Shown: positions 2,231-55,394 of the stretch, one piece after another | Position numbering within the stretch: the stretch's first letter is position 1 | How the letters are laid out: the number at the start of each line of letters is the position of its first letter | Assembly: GCA_965262715.1 (NCBI GenBank) | Contig: OZ253553.1 | Coordinates: 2,496,001 to 2,560,000 of the forward strand | Length of the DNA stretch: 64,000 nucleotides | Source of the DNA: Bdellovibrionales bacterium | GTDB lineage: Bacteria; Bdellovibrionota; Bdellovibrionia; Bdellovibrionales; JAUICD01 | Reading direction: 5' to 3' | The notes under the pieces: model-generated | Databases searched by the model: none | Told to the model about the DNA's origin: nothing | The model's input: only the letters and a program-made list of their open reading frames with translations | Translations under genes and position numbers: made by a program

Positions 2231-2375
2231 TTCACTAAAAATACCTCTTGCCTCTGGCAACTTTCTGACAGTAAGCCTGACGATTTATATCGTTAGCAAG
2301 TAGCTTACTGTCTAGAAAGCCGGACTATTTTTAGGAGAAAGACTCCCCGTGTTCTTTTACTTCATGTTAAGGAAA
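2231..2375 (+). repeat. Family A structured dispersed repeat
   Basis: Starts TTCACTAAAAAT, inner stem GACAGTAAGC/GCTTACTGTC, ends ATGTTAAGGAAA. Confidence 0.8.
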
Positions 2376-2396
2376 CCTCTCCCTTCTTCATTAAAG

Positions 2397-2539
2397 TTCA
2401 CTAAAAATGAACTGGTCTCTGACCATTTTTGGCCAATGAGCACGACGGCTAACGCCCTTGTAAAATGCTTATTGGCTCAAAAACCTGTTCATTTTTAGTA
2501 GGAAGACTCCCTTCGTTGTTTAACACCATGTTAAGGAAA
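2397..2539 (+). repeat. Family A structured dispersed repeat
   Basis: Outer stem CTAAAAATGAAC/GTTCATTTTTAG, inner stem CCAATGAGCA/TGCTTATTGG, ends ATGTTAAGGAAA. Confidence 0.85.
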
Positions 2540-2611
2540 TCGTTTATACCTTACTTCTTACCTTCTCTTCTCCTTACAAATCATATAAATCTTTATAAGT
2601 TAATAAAAGAC

Positions 2612-2703
2612 TTGATGTTTTAAGCCAAAGACAAGATCTTCCGCAGAGTGATCGCTATCCAAGCGATCACTCGAAGACTTCGAGGATTGGCTTAAAATAT
2701 CAA
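2612..2703. repeat. Isolated nested hairpin element
   Basis: Outer IR TTGATGTTTTAAGCCAA/TTGGCTTAAAATATCAA (16/17); inner perfect IR GAGTGATCGCT/AGCGATCACTC. Confidence 0.7.
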
Positions 2704-2734
2704 ATCATTACTTCGAAGATTTTTCCCCTGTTTT

Positions 2735-2884
2735 TTCTAAAAAAACAACCTCTCCACCACCTCTGGCTGTTTTTGGGCAGTCAGCCTGAAGACTTACGTC
2801 TTCAAGAAAATGCTGACTGCCTCAAAAATCCGTTTATTTTTACTAAGCAGATACTCCTCTTTTTTTAGCAAAATGTTAAGGAAA
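2735..2884 (+). repeat. Family A structured dispersed repeat
   Basis: Inner stems GGCAGTCAGC/GCTGACTGCC and TGAAGAC/GTCTTCA, conserved tail. Confidence 0.8.
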
Positions 2885-3166
2885 CCTGTTTATTTTGAGT
2901 AAGCAGATACTCCTCTTTTTTTAGCAAAATGTTAAGGAAACCTGTTTATTTTGAGTAAGCAGATACTCCTCTTTTTTTAGCAAAATGTTAAGGAAACCTG
3001 TTTATTTTGAGTAAGCAGATACTCCTCTTTTTTTAGCAAAATGTTAAGGAAACCTGTTTATTTTGAGTAAGCAGATACTCCTCTTTTTTTAGCAAAATGT
3101 TAAGGAAACCTGTTTATTTTGAGTAAGCAGATACTCCGCGTTCTTTTACTTCATGTTAAGGAAACC
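2832..3166 (+). repeat. 56-bp tandem repeat x6 (amplified 3' tail of family A)
   Basis: Units start at 2832, 2888, 2944, 3000, 3056, 3112; no spacers. Confidence 0.95.
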
Positions 3167-3215
3167 TCTCCCTTTAATAACTATATTATGCAATAAGTCC
3201 TTCAGATTAAAAAGA

Positions 3216-3881: not shown

Positions 3882-4089
3882 TTTACCCTCACTTTATAAT
3901 ATATACAAAATAGCCTATAACATGAACCTCTAATATTTCATTTATATTCCTTCGAGGAAAGATTAAAGACCGCTATTATCCCTCTTTAAACAGTAAATAA
4001 AAAGAATGTGATTTATTATATTTAAAATAGATTTAATGCCTCCAAACTTTTTATTGCTCTCAACATAAATATATAGTTTATTGTTACTT

Positions 4090-11094: not shown

Positions 11095-11593
11095 TATACT
11101 CAACCTCGCTTATCAACAGCTTATTTTTGGATTCTTTCTTAAATAATAACACTTTTTTTAAGTTAGGTTCACTAATTTCTTTGAACTTTTTTTATCATAT
11201 CATAGGCTTATTTGTAAATTAAATGAATTAATGTTTTTAAGTTAAGCTTTACCTGGACTTACTTCGGGTTAGTTAGATAGATTGATACTCAAAACTTCTT
11301 CTATATTTTTTATCATTTTGTTACAAAACATAAATTTATTTTCAAGTATAGAACTAGAAATAAAATGGCAGAATTTATCGAATAAACCAATTAGTGGAGC
11401 TTCAGGTTGATTGTATATAATTTACTCATCTTACGCAACTTTTATAATTTTAAGAGGTTTGTTGTTGTTTACTGATTTACCTAAGTTAAACCTTACTGAA
11501 TTGCTATCTCTGTAGTCCGGGAAACCGGGAATCCCGGGAAACTGGCAGTCTGTTTATTTTGAACTTTTCCCTAATTTTTTTCCCCAAGTTGTA

Positions 11594-11736
11594 TCACTAA
11601 AAATAAACTGACCTTCGGTCATTTTTGGATAGTCAGCCTGAAGACTCACATCTTCAAGAAAATGCTGACTACCTCAAAAAGCTGTTTATTTTTAGTAAGG
11701 AGATACTTTTCATTTTTTACATACATGTTAGGGAAA
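11594..11736 (+). repeat. Family A structured dispersed repeat inside cassette 2
   Basis: TCACTAAAAATAAAC...GTTTATTTTTAGT outer stem; tail ATGTTAGGGAAA; absent from cassette 1. Confidence 0.85.
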
Positions 11737-11774
11737 ATGTTTTATTTCTCAACGAGTAAAGGAGAAAAAAAATT

Positions 11775-12072
11775 ATGAAAAAACTCAAAACTTATCATTA
11801 CCATTCAAGTTCAATTCTATCATAAATCTAACAACTTAAATTTAAGAGGCCCTATGAAGAATCAGTTTCAAAGAGCTATGCTCAGCATTGTACTCAATCT
11901 AGCTGAAGGCTCTGCTAAGTCTAGTCATAAAGAACGTAAGAAGTTTTATGAGATTAGTTTAGGTTCTCTGAGGGAAGTACAAGCAATACTAACTCTTGTT
12001 AACCATCAAAAGTTAATAAAAGAATCTGATAAAATAGGGGCCTTTCTATATAAATTGTGTAAAAATACTTGA
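11775..12072 (+). pseudogene. Four-helix bundle protein, frameshifted copy
   Basis: ATG 11775 aligns with ATG 1759 but a net +4 nt after codon 7 gives an early TAA; the downstream frame matches copy 1 closely. Confidence 0.75.
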
Positions 12073-13429: not shown

Positions 13430-14023
13430 GAACCAGCCTCTGTTTCACTAAAAATGAACCAGCCTCTGTTTCACTAAAAATGAACCAGCCTCTAGAGACG
13501 AGCCTCTGGCTGTTTTTGGGCAATCAGCTTGAAGGTTTGCACCTTCAAAAAATGCTGATTGCCTCAAAAATCTGTTCATTTTTAGTAGACAAGATACCTC
13601 TCATTCTTTAACATAATGTTAAGGAAATCGTTTTATTAATTTAGGTACCATCAAAAAAACTGTCTCATTCACTAAAAATGAACCAGCCTCTAGAGGCGAG
13701 CCTCTGGCTGTTTTTGGACAATCAGCTTGAAGGTTTGCACCTTCAAAAAATGCTGATTGCCTCAAAAATCTGTTCATTTTTAGTAGACAAGATACCTCTC
13801 ATTCTTTAACATAATGTTAAGGAAATCGTTTTATTAATTTAGGTACCATCAAAAAAACTGTCTCATTCACTAAAAATGAACCAGCCTCTAGAGGCGAGCC
13901 TCTGGCTGTTTTTGGACAATCAGCTTGAAGGTTTGCACCTTCAAAAAATGCTGATTGCCTCAAAAATCTGTTCATTTTTAGTAGACAAGATACCTCTCAT
14001 TCTTTAACACAATGTTAAGGAAA
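13430..14023 (+). repeat. Three tandem family A copies (198-bp period) preceded by a 26-bp duplication
   Basis: Units start at 13470, 13668, 13866; GAACCAGCCTCTGTTTCACTAAAAAT repeated at 13430 and 13456. Confidence 0.92.
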
Positions 14024-14106
14024 ACTTCCTTCCACTACCTCTCCTTATAAATCACCTAAATCTTTACAGCAAATTATTGCCCCAAAGATTTTCCCCTTGT
14101 TTTTTA

Positions 14107-14163
14107 TCACTCAAAATAGACCAGTGCCTGTCGCACTTTAAAAGAGTCTGTCCATTTTGAGTA
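14107..14163 (+). repeat. Short family A derivative
   Basis: ACTCAAAATAGAC ... GTCCATTTTGAGT outer stem with a small inner hairpin. Confidence 0.55.
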
Positions 14164-14394
14164 AGAAGCCATCTTTAGTTATGTTATGTTTTGCATTTTG
14201 CAATTTGAATTCTTAAATGCTATAAAACTTTACTTTTGAGATAACTTCTAATTGATTCAAATCTAAAAAACCCCCAAACTAAGAAATATTGACATATTGG
14301 ATTTTGAAATTGCGTGTAAAACTTACACTATATTTTCTTTTATATTTTTTCATTCACATATCAAGCTTTTTATAGTAGCTTTACCAGTAATTTT

Positions 14395-23045: not shown

Positions 23046-23183
23046 CTTGTTTGTCCTACAAATAAAGTAAAGCTCAAATAAGACTTAAGTATTTTGATAT
23101 AGCTTATATAAATAAGCTCCTAGTTGATCTGCCTGTTTTGCTAAGTCAACATGGCCTATCATATTCAATATAGCTTGAGCTGT

Positions 23184-23228
23184 TTCACTCAAAATGAACT
23201 AGCCTCTTGAGGCAAACCTCTTTGAGGA
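23184..23228 (+). repeat. Family A 5' fragment
   Basis: TTCACTCAAAATGAACT followed by two CCTCT..GAGG units, truncated 30 bp before the IS3. Confidence 0.6.
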
Positions 23229-23357
23229 TTGTCCATGAAATAAATCTAGGTACTGATCTGGTCTGTACCCCATAAACTGGAGAGTTAAGTGATAAAGTAA
23301 CTCACTTGTGATTCCTGAACTTTAGCTATAAAAAGCTATAAGAGCAGGAGGAAGATC

Positions 23358-24562: not shown

Positions 24563-24593
24563 AGGGTACACCTCACTGATGGCAAGAATAAAA

Positions 24594-24764
24594 TTTCCCT
24601 AACATTGTGTTAAGAAACAAGAAGATCCTACTAAAATGCATCAGGCTTTCTAGGTAGTCAGCTATTTGCCGACGGCCGTAAGAGCCGTCGGGCTTACTGC
24701 CAGAAAGTGACCAGAGGCTCGCCTCGAGAGGTTCGCCTCGAGAGGTCAGATGCATTTTAGTGAA
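24594..24764 (-). repeat. Family A structured dispersed repeat, inverted orientation
   Basis: Reverse complement starts TTCACTAAAATGCATC, has two CCTCTCGAGG units, apical stem CCGACGGC/GCCGTCGG, ends ATGTTAGGGAAA. Confidence 0.8.
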
Positions 24765-24798
24765 AAAAAAGCAGTACTGATTATAAGGTATATTTAAG

Positions 24799-30937: not shown

Positions 30938-31044
30938 TTACTTAAAAATGAGCCTCTAGAGACGAACCTCTAGAGGCGAGTCTCTCGAGGCGAGCCTCTG
31001 GTCATCTTTAAGAAGGAGATTCCTCTATACTAACATCAAGGAAA
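30938..31044 (+). repeat. Family A derivative lacking the long inner hairpin
   Basis: TTACTTAAAAATG, three 14-bp CCTCT(A/C)GAG(G/A) units, tail ..AAGGAAA. Confidence 0.6.
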
Positions 31045-31336: not shown

Positions 31337-34300
31337 ATGAAATTCTTTCTTTCTACATTTAGTTTAAAACTCGGACGTTTATGTATTTGTTTGTTGTTTT
31401 TAATGCTTGCAGCTTGCGGAGATGATGAAACTAAAGACTCCACAAGTGTTGGAGTCATAGTAACAGGGCTTGAAGATGATGCAACACCCAGAAAGGCAAA
31501 GACATGGAACTGGGGTTGTGAAGAAGATGGTGAAGAAGTAGATTGTGTTTATCGTCATGCGATCACCACAGCAGCATCCCATGATTTTAAAGATGATGAC
31601 TATGATGGTGAAGATAAAAGCGCAACCACTGATGATGGGCTTGATGGAAAACATTATATTCATGTCCAAGCACAATCTGAGGAGACAGATAATGAGTCAG
31701 AGGTAGAGACAGTTTCTGTGACACTAGATAATACCCTTCCAAATGACCCAGATCCAAATAATTTTGATGCTCCTAGTCCAAGTGCTAGCTCACCAATTCA
31801 GATCACTGTGAAAAATCTTAAGGCAGGAGATATAGTTCGCATTTATGTTGATGGCCCCGATAAAGAAGATACAGAAAATAGCAGTTTTCTTAGCAATGTT
31901 TGGAGCCTTGTTGCTCCTGCTTTAAATTTAAGCTCAACAACAACCTCTTCTGATACCATTTGTGCTGATGCAGATAATAAAGTAGGAGAAGAAACTGTTA
32001 GCAGTGGCCAGACACAGGTCACTGTAGATGTAGATGTAAATGTTAGTGAGCACGAATATTATGCAATAATTGAAGATGCAGCTGGAAACGAAAGTGCTTG
32101 TATAAAAGTGTTTACTTACGAGAATATTTTTGTACCTGAACCTCCTACTCCAACAGCTTGTCCATCCATCAAACCTCATTGGAAGTTTGTTGGCGGACTT
32201 TGTCGTCCTTCCTGTGGAGTTATTGCAGGACATGCAGGCTATGGCAGTGGATCTTATGCTCGTGGAGACGCAGAAACTTGTGAAACCCTGACTGCAAGTG
32301 GACATAGCGACTGGGAGGAATTTGAGATTGAAGATGGAGGTCAGACAATAAGCAGTAATGATGCTCATGAAGTAGAAGAGAGAGACGGCGTATGCTGTAA
32401 AAGAGGAACTGCTAGCAATGCATCTTCTCCACCAGTTGTGACAGGTCTTGATCACGACACTACACCGGGGCTTGAAAAAACTTTTACCTGGGGATGTGAT
32501 AAAAATAATTGTCGGTATAGATATGCCATCAATAAATATAGCTCTCATACCTTTCCTGAAAGTACTGTTTACACAAATACAACAACAATCACTAAACCTC
32601 AGGATAAGAGAACCAAGTATTATCTTCATGTACAAGCTGTTAATACAGACCGAGAATCTGCTGTTAAATCTGTATCATTTATCCTCGTGCCTCCTACTCC
32701 TCCTAAAGTGACAGGATTAGAGGATGATCCTACACCTAAGACAGTTAAAACATGGAGCTGGAATTGTGATAAAGGCTCTTGTACCTATCGTTATGCGATC
32801 AATCAAACTCAAACTCATACTTTTACAAATGAGTCTTATGGGCAAGATACAACAGCTACAAAACAGATCACATCTGCCAGTGAAAATGGAACTTATTATT
32901 TACATGTTCAAGCCATGGATTCAGATAGTAATGAGTCTGAAGTAAAAACAGTCCTTGCTATTCTTGAGCTCTCGGCAAATCAAGACATTCATGTCACTGG
33001 TCTTATGCATGACACCAATGCCGGACGTTCAAAGACTTGGAATTGGGCTTGCGATAGCAGTTCTTGTACCTATCGCCATGCGATCAATCAAAATCTGAAA
33101 CACACATTCACTAATGAGGATCTTTATAATTCAACTCAAAGAGCTGTTAAGACAATCACATCTGCCAGTGAAAATGGAACATACTTTTTACATGTTCAAG
33201 CCAAAGATGCAAATAACAAAGAATCTGAAGTAGAGACAGTCGTTGTTGTTCTTGAAATAGGTACCGTTACCAATGATGTTCGTGTTACAAGTCTTAGCCA
33301 TGATACCAATGCCGGACGTTCAAAGACTTGGAATTGGGGTTGTAATAAGAGCTCTTGTACATATCGTGCTGTGATCAACAAAAATAACACCCACACTTTT
33401 TCTGGCAGCACCACATATAGAGCAGCTACAACAGCTGCAAAGTCGATAAATTCTGCAAATGAAAATGGTATATATTATTTACATGTTCAAGCTAGAGATT
33501 CAAATAACAATGAATCTGAAGTAGAAACAGTCCTTGCTGTTCTTGAAATTCCAACAACTACAAGTGATGTTCAAGTGACAGGACTTGCGCATGATACGAA
33601 TGCCGGAGCTTCAAGAATTTGGAATTGGACTTGTAACAAAGGTTCTTGTACTTATCGCTATGCAGTCAACCAAAGTCAAACCCACACTTTCTCTAGCAGC
33701 TATACCTCAACTCGAACAACTACAAAAGCAATCACATCTGCCAGTGAAAATGGAACTTATTATTTACATGTGCAGGCCAAAGACTCAAATAATAATGAAT
33801 CTGAAGTTAAAACAGTCCTTGCCATTCTTAAGATTTCAACAACTACAACAAGTGATGTTCAAGTGACAGGTCTTCTGCATGATGATGTTCCTAAAACTTC
33901 AAAGACTTGGACTTGGGGTTGTAATAAAGGCTCTTGTACATACCGCTATGCAGTCAATCAAGCTCAGTCTCATACTTTTTCTTCAGGAGGTTATACATCT
34001 ACTCAAAGCGCTGTTAAGGCGATCTCTTCTGCCAATGAAAACGGCGTATATTATTTACATGTACAGGCGAGGGATTCAAACAACAATGAATCTGAAGTGA
34101 AGACAGTGATAGCTATTTTTGAAATTTCAAGTGTTGTAGGGACTGTACAAGTAACAGGACTCTCACATGATACTGATCCTAAACGTTCAAAGGCATGGAA
34201 CTGGGGCTGCGATAAGAGTTCCTGTACCTATCGCTATACAATCAATCAAAGTCAAACTCATACTTTTTCTAATAGTGATAGATATAGATCGACTCAAACA

Positions 34301-37153: not shown

Positions 37154-37283
37154 ACTGTATTGATAGATAGGTTAAATTGAAGTTTCAAGTATTTTTACAC
37201 AATTTATATACAAAGGCTCCTATTTTATTACCCTCTTTTATTAACTTTTGATGGTTAACAAGAGTTAGTATTGCTTGATTTGT

Positions 37284-37484
37284 TTCACTCAAAATAAACC
37301 AGCCTCTCGAGGCAAGCCTCTCGAGGCAAGCCTCTCGAGACGAGTCTCTCGAGACAAGTCTTTGGCAATTCTTGGATAGTCAGCCTGAAGGCTTATGCCC
37401 CTTCAGCAAGTAGCTGACACCTCAAAAGTTTGTTCATTTTTAGTAAAGAGATACTCTTTGTTTTTTCATAACATGTTAAGGAAA
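37284..37484 (+). repeat. Family A structured dispersed repeat with four 14-bp palindromic units
   Basis: TTCACTCAAAATAAAC, AGCCTCTCGAGGCA-type unit x4, GTCAGC/GCTGAC stem, tail ATGTTAAGGAAA. Confidence 0.85.
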
Positions 37485-38778
37485 AATTCCTGCTTCTTTT
37501 CATAAGGCACTGGATAAGAGCTAGTTCACAAACCTGCCAAAAGACACTAATAGTACCCAATATAATAAAGTCTATATTTGTGCAGCAAGGTCATTAGGAG
37601 TCAAAGAAACTGTTAATGTTTCATTTAAAATCAAAACTAAAATCATTAGCTCTGCCAGTACTTATGTCTTGAAATAATACCCTCATCTGAAGTTCAATTT
37701 AAAATCCATTATATGAGCATGTCCCACGTTTCGGTGAAATTAAGATTAAGCAGAGCTTAGTGTTTGTTTACGGCTGTTTTTATTGTTAGTCAATAGTTTT
37801 AAATTTTCTTCCATTGTATTTAGATCTTTATATCCTTTAATAGCTCTAAACTTTTTTTCAGCTTCAAGTAAAGAAACAGCAGCCCATCTCATGACCTGAT
37901 CTGAAGAACTTCTCCAGTTCTTAACTCTGCTCACTTTATCTCTTACAATAGAAAAGGCAGACTCAATTGGATTTGTAGAAGATAGAGTTCTTCTTAACAG
38001 TGGAGATACTTTCAATTTAATAGTTGTCAGTGTCTCCATCTCTGCTTCCTTAAGTGAAGTCAATGCTGCATGATTTATCCTACTTAACCAACTCAGTAAA
38101 TTATTGTATTCTCTCTCTGAACAACTATAATCATTAAAGCCATGCAGCATCTTCCAGCGACGCTTAAATTCTAAATGACGTTCTTGAGGCAGATAACTTA
38201 AAACATTCCTCTCCTTGTGATGAATACAGCGTTGAATGGAAGCTCTCTTACCAAAAACTCTATCAATAGCTTTCCTTAAAGATTTGCTTCCATCAATGAC
38301 AAAGAGATAAGGCTTATTTTCACAAAGACCTCTTGCTATCAAACTCTCTAATAAGTCCTTACAAGCTTCCCAATTCTCTGTATGACCTTCTCTAAGACCA
38401 AGAACTAACTTCTTACCTTCAACTGTGATCCCAAGAGCTACAACTACTGTCCTTGAACCAAAAACGACTCCATCAATCATAATTGCTGAAAACTTATTCT
38501 TACTGAGATCACGACCATTTAAAGATTCAAGAGACTTCCTAGATGACTTATTAAAGGCTCTACTTACTGTACTCTTAGAAAGACCGGTACCGCCTACAAT
38601 ATCATCAAGAAGTTCACTGTAATTACGAGAAGATACTCCTCTCATAGCATAGCTCAGAACTCTATCACAAATGATGTCATAGCTTTGAAGCGCTGAATAA
38701 GACTTCAGTTTAATATCAGAACCCCACATCTCCTTCACCCTAGGCTTTCTGACTCGAAGCCTTTGACCTTGTGCAAGA

Positions 38779-41443: not shown

Positions 41444-44400
41444 ATGAAATTCTTTCTCTCTACCTTTAGTTTAAAACTTGGACGTTTATGTATTTGTTTA
41501 TTATTTTTAATGCTCGCAGCCTGTGGGGATGATGATGATAGGGGCCCCGCTAGTGTTGGAGTCATAGTAACAGGGCTTGAAAATGATGCAACACCCAGAA
41601 AGGCAAAGACATGGAACTGGGATTGTGAAGAAAATGGTGAAGAAGTAGATTGTGTTTATCGTCATGCGATCACCACAGCAGCATCCCATGATTTTAAAGA
41701 TGATGAATATGATGAATATAAAAGCGCAACCACTCCTGATGAGCTTGATGGAAAACATTATATTCATGTCCAAGCAGAATCTAAGGAGACAGATAATAAG
41801 TCAGAAGTAGAGACAGTTTCTGTGACATTAGATAATACCCTTCCAAATGACCCAGAGCCAAATAATTTTGATGTTCCTAGTTCAAGTAATGATTCACCAA
41901 TTCAAATCACTGTGAAAAATCTTAAGGCAGGAGATATAGTTCGTATTTATGTTGATGATCCTGAGGAAAAAGATACAGAAAATAGCAATTTTCTTAGTAA
42001 TGTTTGGAGCTTTGTTGCTCCTGCTTTAAATTTAAGTTCAACAACCTCTCCTGATACCATCTGTACTAATGATAATAAAGTAGGAGAAAAAACTGTTAGC
42101 AGTGGCCAGACAGAGGTCACTGTAGATGTAGATGCAAATGTCAGTGAGCACGAATATTATGCAACAATTGAAGATGCAGCTGGAAACGAAAGTGCTTGTA
42201 TAAAGGTATTTACTTACGAGAATATTTTTGTACCTGAACCTCCTGCTCCAACAGCTTGTCCATCTATCAAGCGCTCACCTCATTGGAAATTTGTTGACGG
42301 ACTTTGTCGCCCTTCCTGTGGAGCTATTGCAAGCCGCGCAGGCTATGGCAGTGGAACTCATATTCGTGGAGGCTCAGACACTTGCAACAGTCTGACAGCA
42401 AACGGATACAGTGATTGGACTGAATTCTACATTGAAGAGGGTGGTCAGACAATAAGCAGTAATGATGCTTGGGAGATCGCAGAGAGAGGCGGCGTATGCT
42501 GTAAAAGAGGAACTGCTAACAATCCACGTTCTGCACCAGTTGTGACAGGTCTTGATCATGACCTTACACCGGGGCTTGAAAAAACTTTTACCTGGGGCTG
42601 TGATCAAAGTAATTGCCGTTATAGATATGCTATCAATAAATATAGCTCTCATACCTTTCCTGAAAGTACTGTTTACACAAATACAACAACAGTCACTAAA
42701 ACTCATCTGGATAGGAGAACCAAATACTATCTTCATGTCCAAGCTGCCTCTTCATCTCGAGAGTCTGCTGTTAAATCTGTATCATTTATCCTCGTACCTC
42801 CTACTCCTCCTAAAGTGATAGGATTAGATGATGATCCTACACCTAAAGCAGTTAAAGTATGGCGCTGGAATTGTGATAAAGGCTCTTGTACCTATCGCTA
42901 TGCCATCAATCAAAATCAAAATCACACCTTTACGAATGAGTCTTATGGTCAAGATAGGATAGCTACAAAGCAGATCACTAATTCTAATGAAAATGGAACA
43001 TACTATCTACATGTCCAAGCTCAGGACGTAGATGGTAATGAATCTGAAGTAACAACAGTCCTTGCTATTCTTGAGATATCAATAAGTGAAGACATTCGTG
43101 TCACTGGTCTGAGTCATGATACCAATGCTGGAGACTCAAAGACTTGGAATTGGGGTTGTGATAGCAGTTCTTGTACCTATCGCTATGCTATTAACCAAAG
43201 CCAGGGGCACATATTCACTAATGAGGATCTTTATAACTCAACTCAAACAACTACAAAAACAATCACTTCTGCCAGTGATAATGGAGCATATTTTTTACAT
43301 GTTCAAGCGAAAGATGCAAATAACGATGAATCTGAGGTAGAAACAGTCCTTGCTGTTCTTGAAGTTCCAAACACTACAAATGATGTTCAAGTGACAGGCC
43401 TTAACCATGATACCAGTGCAGGAGCTTCCAAGACTTGGAATTGGGGTTGTAATAAGAGTTCTTGTACCTATCGTTATGCAATTAATCAAACTCAGACTCA
43501 TACTTTTTCTGGTTCTGGCGGATATGGATCCACTCAAAGAGCTGTCAAGACAATTTCTTCTGCTAGCGATAATGGAACATATTACTTGCATGTCCAAGCC
43601 AAAGATGCAAACAACAATGAATCTGAGGTAGAAACAGTCCTTGCTGTTCTTGAAATTCCAACAACTGTAAGTGATGTCCGTGTCACAGGACTCTTACATG
43701 ACACCAGTACTGGAACTTCAAAGATTTGGAATTGGGGTTGTAATCAAAGCTCTTGTACTTATCGCTATGCAATCAATCAAGCTCAGGCTCATCATTTTGG
43801 TAATGCTAGTTATGGTTCAACTCAAACAGCTACAAAATCAATCTCTTCTGCTAGTGATAATGGAACTTATTATTTACATGTTCAAGCTAGAGATGCAAAT
43901 AACGATGAATCTGAGGTAGAAACAGTCCTTGCTGTTCTTGAAGTTCCAGACACTACAAGTGATGTTCAAGTGACAGGACTTGCACATGATACTGTTGAAG
44001 GATCTTCAAAGACTTGGAACTGGGGTTGTAATAAAGGTTCTTGTACGTATCGTGCTGTGATCAATCAAAGTCCAAATCATACTTTTTCTAGCCGTTATGG
44101 ATCGACTCAAACAACTACAAAGACAATCACATCTGCCAGTGATAATGGAACTTATTATTTACATGTTCAGGCCAAAGACTCAAATAATAATGAATCTGAA
44201 GTTAAAACAGTCCTTGCCATTCTTAAGATTCCAACAACTACAACAAGTAATGTTCAAGTGACAGGTCTTCTGCATGATGATGTTCCTAAGACCTCAAAGA
44301 CTTGGAATTGGACTTGTAACAAAGGTTCTTGTACTTATCGCTATGTAGTCAATCAAGCTCAGACTCATAATTTCGGTAGCGCTAGCTATGACTCAACTCA

Positions 44401-47400
44401 AACAACTACAAAAGCAATCACATCTGCCAGTGATAATGGAACTTATTATTTACATGTTCAAGCAAAGAATTCAAATAACGATGAATCTGAAGTAGAAACA
44501 GTCCTTGCTGTTCTTGAAGTTCCAGACACTACAAGTGATGTTCAAGTGACAGGACTTGCACATGATACTGTTGAAGGATCTTCAAAAACTTGGAACTGGG
44601 GTTGTAATAAAGGTTCTTGTACGTATCGTGCTGTGATCAATCAAAGCCAAACTCATACTTTTTCTAGCAGTTATGGATCGACTCAAACAACTACAAAGAC
44701 AATCACATCTGCCAGTGAAAATGGAACTTATTATTTACATGTGCAGGCCAAAGACTCAAATAATAATGAATCTGAAGTTAAAACAGTCCTTGCCATTCTT
44801 AAGATTTCAACAACTACAACAAGTAATGTTCAAGTGACAGGTCTTCTGCATGATGATGTTCCTAAGACCTCAAAGACTTGGAATTGGGGTTGTAATCAAG
44901 GCTCTTGTACTTATCGCTATGCAGTCAATCAAACTCAGACTCATAATTTCGGTAGGACTGGATATGGGTCCACCCAAAGAGCTGTTAAGACAATTTCTTC
45001 TGCCAGTGAAAATGGAACTTATTATTTACATGTGCAGGCCAAAGACTCAAATAATAATGAATCTGAAGTTAAAACAGTCCTTGCCATTCTTAAGATTTCA
45101 ACAACTACAACAAGTGATGTTCAAGTGACAGGTCTTCTGCATGATGATGTTCCTAAAACTTCAAAGACTTGGACTTGGAGTTGCAATAAGGGCTCTTGTA
45201 CATACCGCTATGCAGTCAATCAAGCTCAGTCTCATACTTTTTCTTCAGGAGGTTATACATCTACTCAAAGCGCTGTTAAGGCGATCTCTTCTGCCAATGA
45301 AAACGGCGTATATTATTTACATGTACAGGCGAGGGATTCAAACAACAATGAATCTGAAGTGAAGACAGTGATAGCTATTTTTGAAATTTCAAGTGTTGTA
45401 GGGACTGTACAAGTAACAGGACTCTCACATGATACTGATCCTAAACGTTCAAAGGCATGGAACTGGGGCTGCGATAAGAGTTCCTGTACCTATCGCTATA
45501 CAATCAATCAAAGTCAAACTCATACTTTTTCTAATAGTGATAGATATAGATCGACTCAAACAGCTACAAAACGGATCACCTCTTCAAGTCAAAATGGAAC
45601 ATATTATTTACATGTTCAAGCAAAAGATGGAGGTAACAATGAATCCCAGATAAGAACAATCCTTGTTATTCTTAGGTATAGTGGTGGAGTTGTAGGTGAT
45701 CTTGCAGTCATTGGAGTTGAAGATGATATTATAGCAAAAGATCGTAAAATATGGAGATGGTATTGCACCAATAACTCTGGCGCTTGTAGCTACCGTTATG
45801 TTGTTAATCAGACTGATACACATACCTTCCCAGACAGCCATAGCTTTGATTCAAGTCAAATGGCTGAACAGACAGCCGGTACTGATGACAATGGGACATA
45901 TTATCTGCATGTTCAGGCAAAGGATGGAGCAAATAATCTTTCAGCTGTCAGAAGTGTTGTTGCTTATCTTACTGAGACCCTTTTTCCATCTTCATTATTA
46001 AACTTTATTTGTAATCCCAGTGAAAGTGTTGGAAAAAGCACGCTTTGTTCATGGGGTGTTAGTGGTGGTGAATACCGTCATATAATCAGTGAAAGCGCGA
46101 CTCACATTTTTGGAGTTGATGATCTTTATAGCATGACCACTACTTCTGCAATTATTGATGTGGCCAATGGCAACCGTCATGCTGGTACAACGTATTATTT
46201 ACATGTACAGGGTAAAGATGCAAATGGTAATCTTTCTGATATAGAGACAAACTTTATCACTTTAACAGCAAAAGAGATTGTGGTGAAAATTGATGAAGAA
46301 GAGAGCAAAAAACTTAATAAAATGAGTCAAAAATGGAAGTGGGAATGTGATGAAACTCCAGATGCACCTGCTGAGGCAGCTACTCCGGATTGCGTATATC
46401 GCTACGCAGTCACCAAAGATGAATCTCATACATTTGACAATAATGATGGCTATGGAAGTAATGAGGAAATTACCAAGACTCTAACACATAAAGATGAGAA
46501 TGGTACTTATTACCTCCATGTACAAACCAAAGATGCTGATAATAATGTCTCTGCTGTTAAGAGCAGCGATCCTGGAGTAGAATTAGCATTTGAATTAGAC
46601 CTGGCATTAAAAGATCCAGAGCCTCATACAGCGCCAACCAGCGATGGTGGTGAGGAAGAGCCAACATCACTACAACTTCATCTAAATAAAACGCCTACCT
46701 TTACATTAAGAGGTGTATTGGATAATCATAAGGTGACACTTTACAGCTCATCAGAGTGTACAGATGGAAGTAATGATGATAATGGCGATCCTACTAAAGA
46801 CACTCGAATATCAAGTGAAATCACTATGTCATCAGGACAAGTAGATATCACTATTCCTAATAATAAGTTTTCTGATTTAACGACATATCCTATCTATGTA
46901 GGTGTTAAAGATTCTAATAACGACATAGATTGCTATGCTGCAACAAGCACCTCTAGTGCGACTCCTGTCATAGCTGATGATACAAATAAAGATACTATTG
47001 CACCTCTTTTTGAATACACTCTCTATAATCCTATAGCTGGGGGAGTTGAGAAAACATGTTATCTATCTACAACAGGGGATGTCAAGTGTTGGGGTGATGG
47101 CACTGAAACACCAGATTCTCTTGACAGCTCGAAAGCTAAGGCTGTGGTTGTAGGTGGTGAGAATAATGAATGTCGTATCTTAAGTGATGATACCGCAACT
47201 TGTACTGGAAATTTCGTCCCTACAGAAAATAATGATGAAGTTAATGCCATTGCTCTGGGTGCGGATCATGCTTGCAGCATTTTAAAGGAAGATAACTCTG
47301 TATACTGTTCTGGTGATGACAATGACAAAGGACAACTTGGAACAGGAACTGCATCAAGTGGCGCAGTTAATTTAGGTTGTGATGGTCCTAGTAATAGTTG

Positions 47401-48400
47401 TGATCAACTTAAAGCTAAGGACATTGTTGCTGGTGACAATCATACTTGCGTAATTCTTTTAGATGAGAATGAAAACAATCCAGGTCAGAACTATAATGGC
47501 AGAGTTCTCTGTTGGGGACATAATGCCAAAGGACAACTTGGACAAAATGATATATTAAATCATGGTGCTGAGCCTGATTTAAGTTCTCAAGATACACAAC
47601 CTAGCCTTGTCAGTCAACTTGACTATGTTAATTTGGGTAGTGGTCGAACTGCTAAATCTATTACAGCAGGACAAAACCATACATGCGCCCTATTAGATAA
47701 TAATACAGTGAAATGTTGGGGACATAATATATTAGGTCAACTAGGTCGAAACAATGTCATTGATTATGGTACCGATAACAATCAAATGAGCAGCTTAGGT
47801 ACCATTTCTCTAGGCAGGAGTGCTGCTTCTATTTTCACAGGAGTCGGCTCTAATCATACCTGCGCTGTTTTAGATAATAATACAGTGAAATGTTGGGGTA
47901 ATAACTGGAAAGGACAACTTGGACAAAATGATAAAACAAATGTTGATGAAGATGGAGAAATTGGAAGTGATGATGATCCTGACGATCCCTTCCTTGATGG
48001 CAGTAAGATTGTAATTAACAGAAACCATGGTAGTGGTAGAGGCAATGATGTGCCTCTTAAGACTGGTGAGAGTCGAAGTAATATCCTAACCAAAACTGTA
48101 TCTAGTCTTTCAACTCTTCAATTTGGTTGTAATAGTGGCACTGATCGTAATGGTGAACCTCTACCTTGTTCTTCCTCAAATAACTTTAAACTCAAAGTTC
48201 CTTATGGCATTGCAGTAGGAAAAGATCATGCCTGTGCTGTCTTAGTGACAGATCAAGAAAGCGATAAAGGCAAAGACTTTGTAAAATGCTGGGGATCAAA
48301 CGATAAAAAACAACTTGGCCATGATGAAGACAAAAGTTATGGTAGTAGCACAACTGATAGTGTGGAAAAAGCACCTTTCATTGAGTTTCCAAGTGAGTAA
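41444..48400 (+). CDS. Giant repeat lipoprotein (15 repeats of about 97 aa plus RCC1-like C-terminus), paralog 2
   Basis: Same architecture and same signal peptide/lipobox as 31337-37153, with four additional repeats. Confidence 0.85.
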   Translation: MKFFLSTFSLKLGRLCICLLFLMLAACGDDDDRGPASVGVIVTGLENDATPRKAKTWNWDCEENGEEVDCVYRHAITTAASHDFKDDEYDEYKSATTPDELDGKHYIHVQAESKETDNKSEVETVSVTLDNTLPNDPEPNNFDVPSSSNDSPIQITVKNLKAGDIVRIYVDDPEEKDTENSNFLSNVWSFVAPALNLSSTTSPDTICTNDNKVGEKTVSSGQTEVTVDVDANVSEHEYYATIEDAAGNESACIKVFTYENIFVPEPPAPTACPSIKRSPHWKFVDGLCRPSCGAIASRAGYGSGTHIRGGSDTCNSLTANGYSDWTEFYIEEGGQTISSNDAWEIAERGGVCCKRGTANNPRSAPVVTGLDHDLTPGLEKTFTWGCDQSNCRYRYAINKYSSHTFPESTVYTNTTTVTKTHLDRRTKYYLHVQAASSSRESAVKSVSFILVPPTPPKVIGLDDDPTPKAVKVWRWNCDKGSCTYRYAINQNQNHTFTNESYGQDRIATKQITNSNENGTYYLHVQAQDVDGNESEVTTVLAILEISISEDIRVTGLSHDTNAGDSKTWNWGCDSSSCTYRYAINQSQGHIFTNEDLYNSTQTTTKTITSASDNGAYFLHVQAKDANNDESEVETVLAVLEVPNTTNDVQVTGLNHDTSAGASKTWNWGCNKSSCTYRYAINQTQTHTFSGSGGYGSTQRAVKTISSASDNGTYYLHVQAKDANNNESEVETVLAVLEIPTTVSDVRVTGLLHDTSTGTSKIWNWGCNQSSCTYRYAINQAQAHHFGNASYGSTQTATKSISSASDNGTYYLHVQARDANNDESEVETVLAVLEVPDTTSDVQVTGLAHDTVEGSSKTWNWGCNKGSCTYRAVINQSPNHTFSSRYGSTQTTTKTITSASDNGTYYLHVQAKDSNNNESEVKTVLAILKIPTTTTSNVQVTGLLHDDVPKTSKTWNWTCNKGSCTYRYVVNQAQTHNFGSASYDSTQTTTKAITSASDNGTYYLHVQAKNSNNDESEVETVLAVLEVPDTTSDVQVTGLAHDTVEGSSKTWNWGCNKGSCTYRAVINQSQTHTFSSSYGSTQTTTKTITSASENGTYYLHVQAKDSNNNESEVKTVLAILKISTTTTSNVQVTGLLHDDVPKTSKTWNWGCNQGSCTYRYAVNQTQTHNFGRTGYGSTQRAVKTISSASENGTYYLHVQAKDSNNNESEVKTVLAILKISTTTTSDVQVTGLLHDDVPKTSKTWTWSCNKGSCTYRYAVNQAQSHTFSSGGYTSTQSAVKAISSANENGVYYLHVQARDSNNNESEVKTVIAIFEISSVVGTVQVTGLSHDTDPKRSKAWNWGCDKSSCTYRYTINQSQTHTFSNSDRYRSTQTATKRITSSSQNGTYYLHVQAKDGGNNESQIRTILVILRYSGGVVGDLAVIGVEDDIIAKDRKIWRWYCTNNSGACSYRYVVNQTDTHTFPDSHSFDSSQMAEQTAGTDDNGTYYLHVQAKDGANNLSAVRSVVAYLTETLFPSSLLNFICNPSESVGKSTLCSWGVSGGEYRHIISESATHIFGVDDLYSMTTTSAIIDVANGNRHAGTTYYLHVQGKDANGNLSDIETNFITLTAKEIVVKIDEEESKKLNKMSQKWKWECDETPDAPAEAATPDCVYRYAVTKDESHTFDNNDGYGSNEEITKTLTHKDENGTYYLHVQTKDADNNVSAVKSSDPGVELAFELDLALKDPEPHTAPTSDGGEEEPTSLQLHLNKTPTFTLRGVLDNHKVTLYSSSECTDGSNDDNGDPTKDTRISSEITMSSGQVDITIPNNKFSDLTTYPIYVGVKDSNNDIDCYAATSTSSATPVIADDTNKDTIAPLFEYTLYNPIAGGVEKTCYLSTTGDVKCWGDGTETPDSLDSSKAKAVVVGGENNECRILSDDTATCTGNFVPTENNDEVNAIALGADHACSILKEDNSVYCSGDDNDKGQLGTGTASSGAVNLGCDGPSNSCDQLKAKDIVAGDNHTCVILLDENENNPGQNYNGRVLCWGHNAKGQLGQNDILNHGAEPDLSSQDTQPSLVSQLDYVNLGSGRTAKSITAGQNHTCALLDNNTVKCWGHNILGQLGRNNVIDYGTDNNQMSSLGTISLGRSAASIFTGVGSNHTCAVLDNNTVKCWGNNWKGQLGQNDKTNVDEDGEIGSDDDPDDPFLDGSKIVINRNHGSGRGNDVPLKTGESRSNILTKTVSSLSTLQFGCNSGTDRNGEPLPCSSSNNFKLKVPYGIAVGKDHACAVLVTDQESDKGKDFVKCWGSNDKKQLGHDEDKSYGSSTTDSVEKAPFIEFPSE

Positions 48401-52763: not shown

Positions 52764-52816
52764 GAAATAGGATGGTTGATTATATAGTTTTGATTTTATA
52801 TTATGATATTTAAAAT

Positions 52817-52892
52817 GTGCTCATAGCTCAGTTGGTAGAGCATCACCTTGACGTGGTGGGGGTCAGAGGTTCAAGTCCTCTTGAGCACACCA
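52817..52892 (+). tRNA. tRNA-Val (GAC)
   Basis: GTGCTCA acceptor stem, TAGCTCAGTTGGTAGAGC D arm, loop TTGACGT, GGTTCAAGTCC T arm, CCA. Confidence 0.97.
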
Positions 52893-52936
52893 TTGACTTT
52901 GCTTGGCTTAATAGTAAAAAACAATAAGGTATCTTT

Positions 52937-53611
52937 ATGATTTTAGAGTCTCGATCTTTTATAGGAGATAATTTTACAAGACCAACACCTGAAGTGTTTG
53001 TAGATGAACTAGCTTCCTTTTGTTTAATTGTCACTCCGTGGGGAAATCGATCTGCTATGAAAACTTTTCAGCGGATGATCACTGATTATTATTTATCTGC
53101 AAGTAAAGATTTAGATATCACATCTCCTTATCCTCTTTTACCTTATTTATCAAAGCCTGCCAATGATTTAAGAATAGCGGTTATGTTGGCTGTTGAATGG
53201 CTTTGTCATCAATTTAACAAGGATGAATATCAATGTGGTATAGAGCTTTTTGTGGCAACACAAGTAGAACATGAGCTTTTATGGATAAAGTATGGGAGTC
53301 CTAGCTTGTTTTTCTGTAAAGCAGGTTACAATGTCATTCCTATTGCCCATGATATATCTATCCCCATACAAATGTCAGTAACTCAGACGGCACCATTACC
53401 TACTCACCTTTTAGGCTTTTATCCCAATTCAGATATATCTGTTCAAGGAATAAAGTTTCAAAGTAGTGATAAACTTATTTTAGTCTCTAAACAAAATTTT
53501 GAACCTCAAATTTTACAACTCACATTTGATCAGTGGACATTAGACAATATTTCAAAAGTATTATCCAAAGATAGCAAGGATCCTTTTTGGGCAGGTCTTA
53601 TCACATTGTAA
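52937..53611 (+). CDS. Hypothetical protein (possibly degenerate PP2C-like fold)
   Basis: 224-aa ORF with AAGG RBS; the fold suggestion comes only from pattern resemblance. Confidence 0.6.
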   Translation: MILESRSFIGDNFTRPTPEVFVDELASFCLIVTPWGNRSAMKTFQRMITDYYLSASKDLDITSPYPLLPYLSKPANDLRIAVMLAVEWLCHQFNKDEYQCGIELFVATQVEHELLWIKYGSPSLFFCKAGYNVIPIAHDISIPIQMSVTQTAPLPTHLLGFYPNSDISVQGIKFQSSDKLILVSKQNFEPQILQLTFDQWTLDNISKVLSKDSKDPFWAGLITL

Positions 53612-53613
53612 TA

Positions 53614-53814
53614 GGTTCATGACACTTTAAGATGTTAATTTTTACAGTTAAAAATATTTTTGATTCATCACTACTTTCCGGGATATGGCCTCTGGGGAAC
53701 CGTTTTCCGGGAACCGACTTCGGATTGCCTCGATTGCCGGACTGCCAAATCCCGGTATAATGAGGGTTTGTTATTTTAACTTAAATTGTAAAATATAAAA
53801 CTTTATTTTTAAGA
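53614..53814. repeat. Family B element
   Basis: GGTTCATGAC end; octamers ATTGCCGG-ACTGCCAA-ATCCCGG; right part is an inverted homolog of 28517-28625. Confidence 0.65.
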
Positions 53815-53826
53815 TGGCTATTCATT

Positions 53827-55233
53827 TCAATCTTCTTCTAACTCTTCATCACCTGGGCCGTGGAGGTTATATTTACGAATACGATACCTCATTGAACGAA
53901 ATGTAATACCTAGCAATTTAGCAGCTTTTTTCTTAACCCCATTTGCTTTATGAATAGCCTTTACAATGAGTTCTTTTTCAATATGTCCAATAATATTTTC
54001 TAAATCAACACCCTCATCAGTTATTTCAATATCTCGACTTGAAGCCATTCTTCTCCCAGAAGCAGTCATTACAAAAGGAGGAAGACTTTCTGGTAAAATT
54101 GTTGCCCCACCTTCCAACGCTACTGTACGTTCAATAATATTTTCTAGCTCACGCACATTTCCAGGATAATGATATTTTTTGAGGGACAACATTGCTTCAT
54201 CAGAAATACCTTGAATGTTTTTTATAAGCTTTTCATTGTATTTCTTTAAAAAGAACTCTGCAAGAAGAGGGATATCATCCTTTCTTTCTCTTAACGAAGG
54301 TGCACGGATTAAAATCACATTAAGCCGATAGTAAAGGTCTTCTCTAAATTCACCAGTTTTCACCATATCCTCTAAAACTCTATTAGTTGCCGCTATAATC
54401 CTCACATGTACTTTTAAATCTTGTGTATCTCCTACTTTACGGATTATACGTTCCTGAATAGCTCTTAACAATTTTACCTGAATAGATAGAGGTAATTCTC
54501 CAACTTCATCTAAAAAAAGTGTCCCTCCATCTGCTACTTCAAAAAGTCCTTGTTTATCACAAATAGCTCCAGTGAAAGACCCTTTCTTGTGTCCAAACAT
54601 TTCAGACTCCATGAGAGCTTCAGGAATAGCTCCACAATTGACCGTTACAAAAGGTTTATCTTTAAAAAAACCATTATAGTGAATAGCTTTTGCGATCATT
54701 TCTTTACCTGTACCGCTTTCTCCTGTAATCAAAATATTCGTTGGAGATTGTGACACTCTCTCAACTATGTTATAAACATTATGCATACTTTCTGAATTAC
54801 CCACTAAATTTTGAAAATTAAATTCTTTTTGCAGTTCTCTTTTGAGACTGCGATTTTCTATTTCTAAATGCTTGCTTTTTACAGCGTTTTTGATATTAAG
54901 GCGAACTTCATCAATTTTAAAAGGTTTAGTGAGATAATCATAAGCTCCTTTTTTCATCACTTCCACAGCCGACTCTGTGGTACCAAAAGCCGTGATCACC
55001 ATAAACGTCAAGTCAGGATAATTTAAATTGACATGATGGAGTAATTGAATACCTGTCATGCGAGGCATTTGCAGATCTGAAATAACCATACTAAAAGACT
55101 TCTTTTTCAGAATTTCTACAGCTTGCTGACCATCCTCAGCACATGTGACATCATAACCTTCCTTTTTCAACATGATCTCTAAAAACTCTCGAATAGACGC
55201 TTCATCATCTACGACAAGTATTTTTGTTTTCAC
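53827..55233 (-). CDS. pilR: Sigma-54-dependent response regulator PilR
   Basis: REC domain, GESGTGKE, GSFTGA, PGNVRELEN, C-terminal HTH LLGITFRSMRYR; pil cluster context. Confidence 0.88.
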   Translation of the reverse strand: MKTKILVVDDEASIREFLEIMLKKEGYDVTCAEDGQQAVEILKKKSFSMVISDLQMPRMTGIQLLHHVNLNYPDLTFMVITAFGTTESAVEVMKKGAYDYLTKPFKIDEVRLNIKNAVKSKHLEIENRSLKRELQKEFNFQNLVGNSESMHNVYNIVERVSQSPTNILITGESGTGKEMIAKAIHYNGFFKDKPFVTVNCGAIPEALMESEMFGHKKGSFTGAICDKQGLFEVADGGTLFLDEVGELPLSIQVKLLRAIQERIIRKVGDTQDLKVHVRIIAATNRVLEDMVKTGEFREDLYYRLNVILIRAPSLRERKDDIPLLAEFFLKKYNEKLIKNIQGISDEAMLSLKKYHYPGNVRELENIIERTVALEGGATILPESLPPFVMTASGRRMASSRDIEITDEGVDLENIIGHIEKELIVKAIHKANGVKKKAAKLLGITFRSMRYRIRKYNLHGPGDEELEED

Positions 55234-55251
55234 TGCTTGCTCCTTTCTATT

Positions 55252-55394
55252 TTACTCAAAATAAACTGGTCTCTGACCATTTTTGGACAATCAGCATGAA
55301 GGTTCACACCTTCAATAAAATGCTGACTGCCTCAAAAATCCGTTTATTTTGAGGAGGGAGATATTCCTCGTTACTTAACATCATGTTAAGGAAA
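55252..55394 (+). repeat. Family A structured dispersed repeat between pilS and pilR
   Basis: CTCAAAATAAAC/GTTTATTTTGAG outer stem, TGAAGG/CCTTCA apical stem, tail ATGTTAAGGAAA. Confidence 0.85.

Follow-up and report, generated by a model that had tools for sequence, protein, structure and literature searches.

A genus-specific interspersed repeat of Bdellovibrionales with a covarying four-helix fold and the likely habits of a one-ended selfish element

Structured repeats between genes may be selfish DNA or functional RNA, and we describe here a non-coding interspersed repeat that likely belongs to the first kind. The unit is about 150 nt long, lies mostly between genes, reaches hundreds of copies per genome and is restricted to one genus of Bdellovibrionales. 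Likely it is a REPIN/BIME-like selfish repeat of an undescribed kind that behaves as a one-ended single-strand transposon. The reading that we prefer, at a probability of about one half, is that the repeat is non-autonomous and that an enzyme, presumed to act in trans, copies it from a fixed 5' start while it is folded as single-stranded DNA. The repeat was recognized in a window of 64,000 nucleotides (contig OZ253553.1); the genome holding this window is termed G000, G001 is a congeneric genome and G003 a genome without the repeat. G000 has 455 matches, 309 of them full, and G001 has 1275, and the repeat makes up 2.1% and 6.0% of the sequence in two single-contig genomes. For 190 of 738 G001 copies a distant copy of at least 98% identity exists. 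In a further genome, G004, copies are confined to small contigs about 90% identical to G000, and these contigs are probably misbinned. A blastn search against phages and plasmids gave no match to the repeat, pattern scans of JGI metagenomes gave 0 matches, the short tail motif has 11 matches in viruses, none of which extends any further, and an Rfam search matched no family.

The window contains ten full copies and three derivatives. The first-pass annotation had counted about 13 copies; 10 of its 13 sites are indeed full, while those at 14107, 23184 and 30938 are derivatives. Three full copies lie on the plus strand at 2229..2378, where the start is 8 nt from the 5' end of a tRNA-His gene on the opposite strand, at 2397..2544, in tandem, and at 2737..2886, with a variant 5' start. 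A tandem array of five 56-nt repeats, each made of the 3' part (P1 3' arm and tail; 2882..3167, plus strand), had escaped the earlier annotation, as had a repeated 5' start, or restart, at 13441..13468 (plus). The latter adjoins three full copies (13468, 13668 and 13866) that stand head to tail with a unit of 198 nt (13468..14027, plus). Another plus-strand copy (11591..11740) is inserted into the leader hairpin of an IVP gene, within the hairpin loop. The copy at 24590..24766 (minus) carries extra 14-nt units in its small hairpin, and that at 37281..37487 (plus) has an expanded small hairpin and is fused to an antisense IVP C-terminal fragment. The copy used as search query (55250..55398, plus) pairs P1 at about 55254-55266 with 55342-55354 and has its tail motif at about 55383-55394. 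Among the derivatives, all on the plus strand, 14107..14165 is a short hairpin with only the 5' start and outer stem, lacking inner helices and tail (weak profile match, E 0.0067). At 23181..23240 only the 5' start is left; it is fused to a C-terminal IVP fragment in antisense, and an IS3-type element comes next. The site at 30938..31043 is a collapsed form with start, repeated small hairpin and shortened tail (no profile match at E<=0.05). The associated four-helix-bundle gene (23S_rRNA_IVP / TIGR02436) at 1747..2052 (plus) is one of 19 matches in G000; a second IVP gene copy with altered 5' part (11775..12072, plus) stands directly behind the 11591 copy. The reported excess of plus-strand copies holds locally in the window but dissolves genome-wide, where 146 plus and 163 minus copies are found among the 309 full ones of G000, which rules out orientation as an argument for RNA. 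With respect to leading and lagging strand (GC skew) there is a modest bias in G000 (p 0.002-0.02) and none in G001.

Full copies have the outer stem, small hairpin, long bulged hairpin and tail ending in ATGTTARGGRAA that had been described before. Together they make up a fold of four helices that includes a three-way junction and an A-rich bulge; the tail motif is invariant, and an extrahelical T nearly so in G000. The stem variants quoted as evidence for kept pairing are present in the sequence; across the window copies two-sided changes occur in 27 of 41 pairs, and their covariation score was reached by 0 of 500 shuffles. The four helices covary strongly genome-wide too, with mutual information in G000 of 0.77-1.45 within pairs versus 0.03-0.40 between helices. 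Pairing is almost purely Watson-Crick: 6199 of 6710 ungapped cells in G000 (112 G·T) and 11177 of 12207 in G001 (182 G·T), or about 92% overall with less than 2% G·T. On the given strand A·C mismatches outnumber G·T about 2:1, both being rare, and this excess suggests that it is the opposite strand that folds. A structured RNA gene, one of the options raised at first, is thus unlikely. The hairpin of the tail showed no covariation, and G·T pairs are tolerated there on the given strand. Whole helices are swapped, such that copies at orthologous sites carry different inner helices; loss of mismatch repair is ruled out as the cause, MutS being present. Fold-back forms occur in 92 of 1145 tails in G001. 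Covariation is no proof of selection on each copy here, because arm-to-arm copying and helix swapping generate it as well.

Comparison of sequences between relatives indicates that the repeat has moved, and recently. Across 361 gene adjacencies conserved between G000 and G001, copies lie in 9 in G000 only, in 12 in G001 only and in 0 in both. Contigs about 90% identical to G000 provide filled and empty sites, at which the 5' start is joined exactly at the homologous position. The junctions are polar: the 5' start meets the target sharply, and the 3' side has a variable flank, deletions or duplications of 13-85 nt. The 3' flank alone is shared by more loci than the 5' flank alone (47 vs 21 of 108; 127 vs 41 of 147), a pattern also obtainable by amplification of few composite units. 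Tandem units consist of the element plus downstream flank, and the spacer matches only the 3' flank of the last copy in 6 of 31 and 17 of 90 arrays, versus only the 5' flank of the first copy in 1 and 0, with most spacers matching neither outer flank (18/31 and 72/90). A 5' restart precedes 36 of the 309 full copies of G000. Flanking duplications of 13-85 nt were found in 11 of 176 arrays (null 11/4000), the other 165 having no abutting duplication, and neither a fixed target duplication nor terminal repeats were found. Starts favor tRNA ends (7/68, expected 0.3) and abut stop codons (24/247 vs 3/237; 43/598 vs 7/521). The element brings its own stop, the source of part of this last excess. 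Before the start, a C at -6 is present in 66% of G000 copies and 18% of those in G001; the 5' junctions of G001 have no conserved CT or tetranucleotide, and target joints show T-rich microhomology only. Insertions are found in IVP genes and in one CRISPR array, where one copy exactly fills a spacer slot between full repeats; the three copies flanked by CRISPR sequence are almost the same and seem to stem from a single event. Other ideas on targeting fell away. Target pairing by the 3' tail, suggested by one IVP insertion, gave no excess (5.40 vs 5.33, 114 non-redundant copies), general insertion at hairpin feet was unsupported (62 isolated copies, p=0.70), with only tRNA ends enriched, and copies were not significantly enriched at synteny breakpoints (p 0.24 and 0.17).

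A mobilizing enzyme for the repeat was identified in neither G000 nor G001. The single Y1 protein of G000 is an IS200-family transposase (NF033573) with its own ends, about 2 kb from the nearest repeat copy, and this resident IS200 has ends unrelated to the repeat and a miniature derivative of its own. No Y1 transposase was detectable in G001 and no RAYT flanked by the repeat in either genome. Searches for Y2 (PF04986) in G000 and for Zn_Tnp_IS91 (PF14319) in seven genomes found none, the control of each search being likewise silent. Of the 1193 proteins common to G000 and G001, 146 were scanned with Pfam, with no HUH-like candidate among them. The window encodes no reverse transcriptase, as already stated in the first-pass annotation, though G000 has three such genes or remnants elsewhere (the RT of a group II intron together with a broken copy of it, and a retron RT), and none of them is linked to the repeat; in G001 no RT was detectable. 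DinB and an AEP polymerase were found in neither genome. GIY-YIG (one UvrC-sized match per genome), Rpn (16 matches also in repeat-free G003), Cas1 (also in G003) and a small tyrosine recombinase (found in 32 of the 41 genomes screened for it, most of which lack the repeat) were dropped as candidates without specific support. A search for an autonomous element, in which left and right halves would enclose a plausible enzyme ORF, found none.

If the repeat is indeed copied one-endedly by an enzyme in trans, in rolling-circle or peel-off style, copying would begin at TGTTTCAC and stop at a variable point, with the fold and the tail motif as probable recognition signals. The copied strand would then be rejoined, often through a short stretch of T-rich microhomology, to the 3' end of the target or to another start. 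Fold-back copying and recombination among copies may keep the arms complementary and would thereby account for part of the "compensatory" change. IVP cassettes would be riding cargo or accessory partners. Against a rolling-circle view, long flanking duplications are not known from IS91-type insertion. There is precedent for such steps, since the part of PMC13023784 drawn on here describes one-ended mobilization from oriIS for IS91/ISCR, and that of PMC3333891 nick-primed tandem amplification for TnpA-REP and BIMEs.

All 14 IVP genes of G001 have a repeat copy downstream on the opposite strand; for 9 of these genes it lies at +378 to +453, counted from where the aligned IVP coding region begins. 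IVP fragments stop where another repeat copy begins and form no random truncation ladder. A family-wide co-occurrence of IVP and repeat was rejected: the G004 copies are probably misbinned, and IVP also spreads without the repeat, with multi-copy cassettes in the main contigs of G004 and in other genera and families. Within the order, 83 of 251 genomes have IVP; no sequence match for it was found in the PDB. Compared with IVP hairpin cassettes the repeat is a separate complex fold, not made of 7-8-mer arms.

Helitrons, like IS91 and ISCR elements, have a fixed start, one-ended mobilization and no terminal inverted repeats. The repeat shares with IS91/ISCR, as far as the consulted sections of PMC13023784 describe them, a fixed start, one-ended capture of adjacent DNA, tandem repeats and the lack of terminal inverted repeats. 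In addition, oriIS lies downstream of and antisense to the transposase gene (PMC13023784), as the repeat start does to IVP in G001. The repeat differs in that no Y2 was found, in searches with silent controls, in having no fixed target tetranucleotide and occasional long duplications, and in a tail that by eye agrees with the quoted ISCR1 oriIS at only 7 of 12 positions. With REPINs and BIMEs, going by excerpts of PMC3116915 and PMC3333891, it has in common intergenic location, hundreds of copies, compensatory hairpins, tandem clusters including flanks, insertion beside existing copies and no fixed duplication; however, it is one asymmetric 150-nt three-way-junction unit with strong 5'/3' polarity and not an inverted REP doublet. 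Non-autonomous IS200/IS605 derivatives likewise use a folded single-strand substrate and make no duplication, but the resident IS200 ends are unrelated to the repeat and G001 lacks the enzyme. The view that this is not a classic MITE was borne out, with no terminal inverted repeats, only a loose 8/11 similarity of the ends (by eye) and no fixed-length duplication. Rickettsia palindromic elements, ERIC and the Correia/RUP MITEs are likewise structured repeats, 100-150 nt long, each confined to particular lineages with AT-rich genomes. The repeat differs from these in having neither terminal inverted repeats nor a TA-type duplication of fixed length, and IS ends that match it were not found.

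Several other explanations have to be weighed. The original comparison to REP/REPIN sequences was apt for the conserved single-stranded fold and the mobile behavior but is not supported as to REP/RAYT identity, no RAYT having been found. It is conceivable, though doubtful, that the repeat is an orphaned REP/REPIN/BIME whose ancestral RAYT-like Y1 nuclease was lost and whose copies are now duplicated and homogenized by host recombination and slippage. Compensatory change and tandem clusters including flanks are on record for REPINs in the sections of PMC3116915 used here, and a portion of PMC3333891 notes E. coli strains that have lost TnpA-REP. Also in its favor are a G[T/G]A[G/A] after P1 and the C before the start in G000, but no covarying hairpin follows the former, a REP doublet or GTAG-footed 20-40-nt palindrome is absent and CT is unconserved at G001 junctions. 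Moreover, no RAYT was found in either genome, while even relatives that are ~90% identical have copies at different positions, and tRNA-end targeting requires an active process. Unlikely is copying free of any transposase, in which the fold and an Avd-like protein encoded next to it would recruit a host polymerase or nuclease that copies the element and its 3' DNA onto free 3' ends (tRNA, gene ends). Still less probable is a SINE-like retroposon with an antisense RNA template, for instance the 3' end of the IVP mRNA, ending at ...GTGAAACA. Here a host 3'-OH (nicked DNA, a tRNA end) would prime at the RNA 3' end with help of the Avd-like IVP protein and yield sharp 5' junctions, truncations and variable duplications. 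The opposite-strand copies behind all G001 IVP genes, the variable duplications, the starts at tRNA ends and stop codons and the A·C excess expected for a folded antisense strand fit this. However, G001 has no detectable RT and neither genome DinB or AEP polymerase, G·U-type pairs are rare on both strands, the truncation ladder is absent, IVP cassettes multiply without the repeat in G004 main contigs and other families, and the element's own stop explains part of the stop-codon excess.

A host-useful structured RNA, such as a 3'-UTR stabilizer or translation-control hairpin selected at gene ends, would explain the enrichment in the same sense just behind stop codons and tRNA ends and the strong RNA folding (z about -7.5). 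It is very improbable: congeners have 0 orthologous positions in common, all four gene contexts carry copies, insertions hit IVP genes and a CRISPR array, and wobble pairs are nearly absent. An equally slim chance is given to a substrate for a tyrosine recombinase (an attC-like or Xer-exploiting folded strand) or for Cas1 (casposon-like). The extrahelical base, the strict stems, the tail, which we take to resemble a XerD half-site, the exactly filled spacer slot and several Cas1 genes in G000 and G001 would suit such enzymes. There are, however, no cassette arrays and no integron integrase but only XerD-like proteins and the widespread small core recombinase; the CRISPR-flanked copies look like one event, Cas1 also occurs in G003, and abutting duplications are missing from nearly all arrays. 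Largely refuted, finally, is a retron msr-msd-like ncRNA that makes msDNA. The topology is loosely alike, as had been remarked, and in G000 one copy has a St85-family retron RT about 0.4 kb away, yet that copy is attached to the 3' end of tRNA-Asp and the same attachment occurs in RT-less G001. With about one repeat match per ~6 kb such proximity is expected by chance, and hundreds of dispersed copies in a genome with no detectable RT speak against a retron.

For RNA-motif discovery the repeat is a caution, as strong covariation here accompanies near-pure Watson-Crick pairing and helix swapping and not an RNA gene. Its hundreds of natural variants allow the required features to be mapped, namely bulges, triloop, tail motif and 5' start. 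Should the mobilizer be a lost RAYT, this would be one further REPIN-like family. If the factor is instead a host enzyme or the IVP/Avd-like protein, the repeat bears on IVP function and on how structured repeats spread without a transposase. If transposase-free copying holds true, the repeat would be the first cis-signal to be defined for the large orphan IVP family. It would then also be a bacterial element with polarity, resembling SINEs or Helitrons, for which no HUH, DDE or RT enzyme is known.

The nested-hairpin repeat of about 150 nt has a defined fold and a polarity, it is mobile, and its helices are exchanged between copies. A profile seeded with seven copies from the window and refined by repeated searches of the source genome G000 (single contig, 2.94 Mb, 33.6% GC, 92.7% complete by markers) returned 482 matches, or 455 once opposite-strand self-matches were dropped, 309 of them full length; the reversed genome gave 0 matches. 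For the window, the first-pass annotation had counted about 13 copies. The iterated profile finds 10 full ones there. Three of the listed sites, 14107, 23184 and 30938, proved to be derivatives, and the earlier list lacked five tail repeats at 2882-3167. The + strand bias of the window is local, because full copies genome-wide split into 146 on + and 163 on -. Rfam gave no described family for the repeat: the window gave no match at gathering level and one copy nothing meaningful at E<=5. Elsewhere in the window, transposase genes lie between two paralogous giant ORFs of about 97-aa tandem modules, at 31337-37153 (1938 aa, RCC1-like repeats by scan) and 41444-48400 (2318 aa). Another dispersed repeat, the third, is about 170 nt long and occurs at L209:3470-3765 and at about 60 G000 sites.

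Among 251 genomes of the order, the tail motif was counted 245 times in G000, 546 times in its congener G001, 6 times in G004 and once in G178, and was not found in the remaining 247; with a longer pattern, G000 was the sole match among 401 genomes of the phylum, a set without G001. The G004 copies sit on three small contigs (C1, C4, C11) about 90% identical to G000, which are probably misbinned; one of these contigs bears an ORF-less miniature of the IS200 element of G000. In G001 (single contig, 90% complete by markers) the profile gave 1275 matches, 738 of them full, and the repeat makes up 6.0% of the genome. Cumulative GC skew in G001 is almost flat, and this genome has a family of 83 small ORFs that look like coiled coils, some inside split repeat copies. 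Viral contigs, JGI metagenomes, phages and plasmids gave no repeat match that extended.

From G000, 198 distinct anchored copies were reduced to 161 at <93% identity (mean identity 71%). The highest covarying column pairs are Watson-Crick partners, and the alignment gives a covarying outer helix of 13 bp (P1), a side hairpin of 5 bp with a TCT loop (P2), a 16-bp helix (P3) with an extrahelical T in 160/161 copies, an A-rich bulge of 6 nt, an apical helix of 8 bp (P4) and, 3' of the fold, a 40-nt tail with a nearly invariant last part, ATGTTARGGRAA. A hairpin tested in the tail shows no covariation, and the tail therefore reads as a sequence-specific site. Compensatory change in the stems, as first proposed, is borne out: when 22 copies taken from three assemblies were aligned independently, both sides changed in 27 of 41 pairs, 0/500 shuffles, a control that ignores relatedness, reach the covariation score, and slid pairings lower the paired fraction to 31-46%. 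Helices reassort almost freely in G000 (mutual information 0.77-1.45 within pairs vs 0.03-0.40 between helices), and in three orthologous copies compared with the ~90% identical relative the inner helices are swapped for other fully paired alleles, with junction and outer parts mostly retained. In G001, 92 of 1145 tails are preceded by the 5' start in exact reverse complement; these fold-back products may derive from few events. The covariation is thus real, yet at least partly made by copying and exchange. The earlier proposal of selection on a single-stranded fold is supported in part.

Genome comparison shows the mobility. G000 and G001 share 1193 orthologs (mean protein identity 63%) and 361 conserved adjacencies; the repeat occupies 9 of these in G000 alone, 12 in G001 alone and 0 in both. 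Two orthologous gaps filled in the ~90% relative are empty in G000. In both, the junction between 5' start and target lies at the homologous position; on the 3' side target is lost and foreign sequence, partly another repeat family, is present. Comparison with paralogous empty sites, among the matches listed, gives the same picture. Repeat ends carry no fixed target duplication, and direct repeats of 13-85 nt abut both ends of 11/176 non-redundant arrays (null 11/4000). Starts lie <=12 nt from 7/68 tRNA gene ends in G000 (expected 0.31) and 10/70 in G001 (expected 1.0), three of these ten resembling chance motif matches, and the targeted tRNAs differ mostly between the two genomes. Same-sense stop codons are adjoined by the start in 24/247 cases vs 3/237 for the 3' end, and in a second comparison in 43/598 vs 7/521, part of the excess arising because the element itself brings a stop. 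A test showed no general preference for hairpin feet.

The two ends also differ in what accompanies them. The 3' flank alone is common to loci in 47 of 108 clean arrays in G000 and 127 of 147 in G001, the 5' flank alone in 21 and 41. Tandem spacers equal only the sequence behind the last copy in 6/31 arrays (G000) and 17/90 (G001), only that before the first copy in 1/31 and 0/90, and in the majority resemble neither outer flank. Behind tRNA-Arg, each unit is made up of the element and 35-66 nt of antisense tRNA, joined again to a new start; antisense IVP fragments have two hotspot end points, at which a repeat start adjoins CT or TGTTT microhomology. A partial 5' restart lies upstream of 36 of the 309 full copies in G000. 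A second dispersed hairpin family with variable centre (TTGATGTTTTAAGCCAA ... TTGGCTTAAAATATCAA; window 2610-2710) is tied to the repeat via a spacer rich in pyrimidines, and the resulting BIME-like mosaics occur throughout the genome.

IVP four-helix-bundle genes (PF05635, TIGR02436), whose products resemble the DGR protein Avd, are multi-copy, with 19 matches in G000, 14 in G001 and 19 in G004, and none in the genomes G002, G003 and G007. In G000, 11/16 clustered IVP ORFs lie <=400 nt from a repeat copy vs 16% of all genes; in G001 all 25 IVP tblastn matches lie <=156 nt from one, and each of the 14 IVP genes is followed downstream by an opposite-strand copy. Against dependence on the repeat count the presence of IVP in 83/251 order genomes and the repeat-free cassettes on G004 main contigs; a search of 30 IVP loci in other families yielded no credible repeat match. 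IVP may be cargo or partner, and a transposase-free copying system assisted by IVP seems distinctly doubtful. In the hairpin formed by the IVP leader (window 1690-1775, 11500-11780), the 5' arm complements the ribosome-binding site together with the start codon, and CCGG-rich 8-mer repeats lie upstream. Several other Bdellovibrionales families carry head-to-head IVP pairs with one central hairpin bearing both ribosome-binding sites (L046, L047, L048, L052, L058 and others), multi-copy per genome and bordered by 6-8-mer repeats.

For the mechanism, we give roughly even odds (about 0.5) to one-ended copying of a folded single DNA strand. Copying would begin at the fixed 5' start and stop at a variable point, and the copied strand would rejoin either another start or the 3' end of a target. 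Circles that contain the element and its flank would, via recombination, account for tandem arrays and flank duplications. One-ended mobilisation of IS91/ISCR (PMC13023784) and the nick-primed amplification model for BIME (PMC3333891) resemble this scheme. The repeat behaves like REPIN/BIME and rolling-circle elements, but departs from them in their defining tests wherever these can be applied. A RAYT, TnpA or RT gene was sought on the earlier suggestion. The single Y1 protein of G000 is an IS200-type transposase whose ends are unrelated to the repeat, and RT matches in this genome number three (a group II intron, its broken copy and an St85 retron); family search plus tblastn detected neither Y1 nor RT in G001, where 190/738 copies have a >=98% identical copy >5 kb away. 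A relic repeat whose RAYT was lost is an unlikely reading, though one to be taken seriously. IS91-type domains gave no match, but the controls were also silent. Of the 1193 shared orthologs, 146 basic soluble proteins were scanned against Pfam, with no HUH or polymerase candidate among them.

Copying through an RNA template is improbable, and the retron msr-msd reading raised at first is extremely unlikely, RT being undetected in G001; the St85-family retron of G000 (L003:1282-3054, -) encodes 590 aa, with an effector fused N-terminally to the RT, and adjoins tRNA-Asp. A host RNA function would fit a paired fold, and we consider it very improbable. Pair cells in G000 comprise 6199 Watson-Crick, 112 G·T, 196 A·C, 203 other and 52 gaps, and in 299 non-redundant G001 copies 11177, 182, 377, 471 and 351; wobbles are scarce whichever strand is read, leaning 2:1 to the antisense strand, in contrast to typical structured RNAs, in which they are not rare. 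The repeat as substrate of a recombinase or Cas1 is likewise highly unlikely. One 155-nt copy exactly fills the terminal spacer slot of a CRISPR array (G000:C1:482091-483079), and two more repeat-element-repeat CRISPR units lie at about 476740 and 490430; as mobilisers, GIY-YIG, Cas1, Rpn, small tyrosine recombinase, DinB and AEP are absent or unspecific. The catalytic-domain-only tyrosine recombinase is single copy, at 47-72% identity, in 32/41 genomes searched including G000, where only one full-length Xer was seen; L014:1459-2016 (-) encodes such a protein of 185 aa. Cas1 genes number several each in G000 and G001, and Rpn (YhgA-like) genes are expanded (19 matches in G000, 16 in G001, 16 in G003). 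The listings and abstract openings consulted, with most subscription journals outside their coverage, contained no published description of the repeat. It is a real, undescribed and genus-specific repeat, probably a selfish element.
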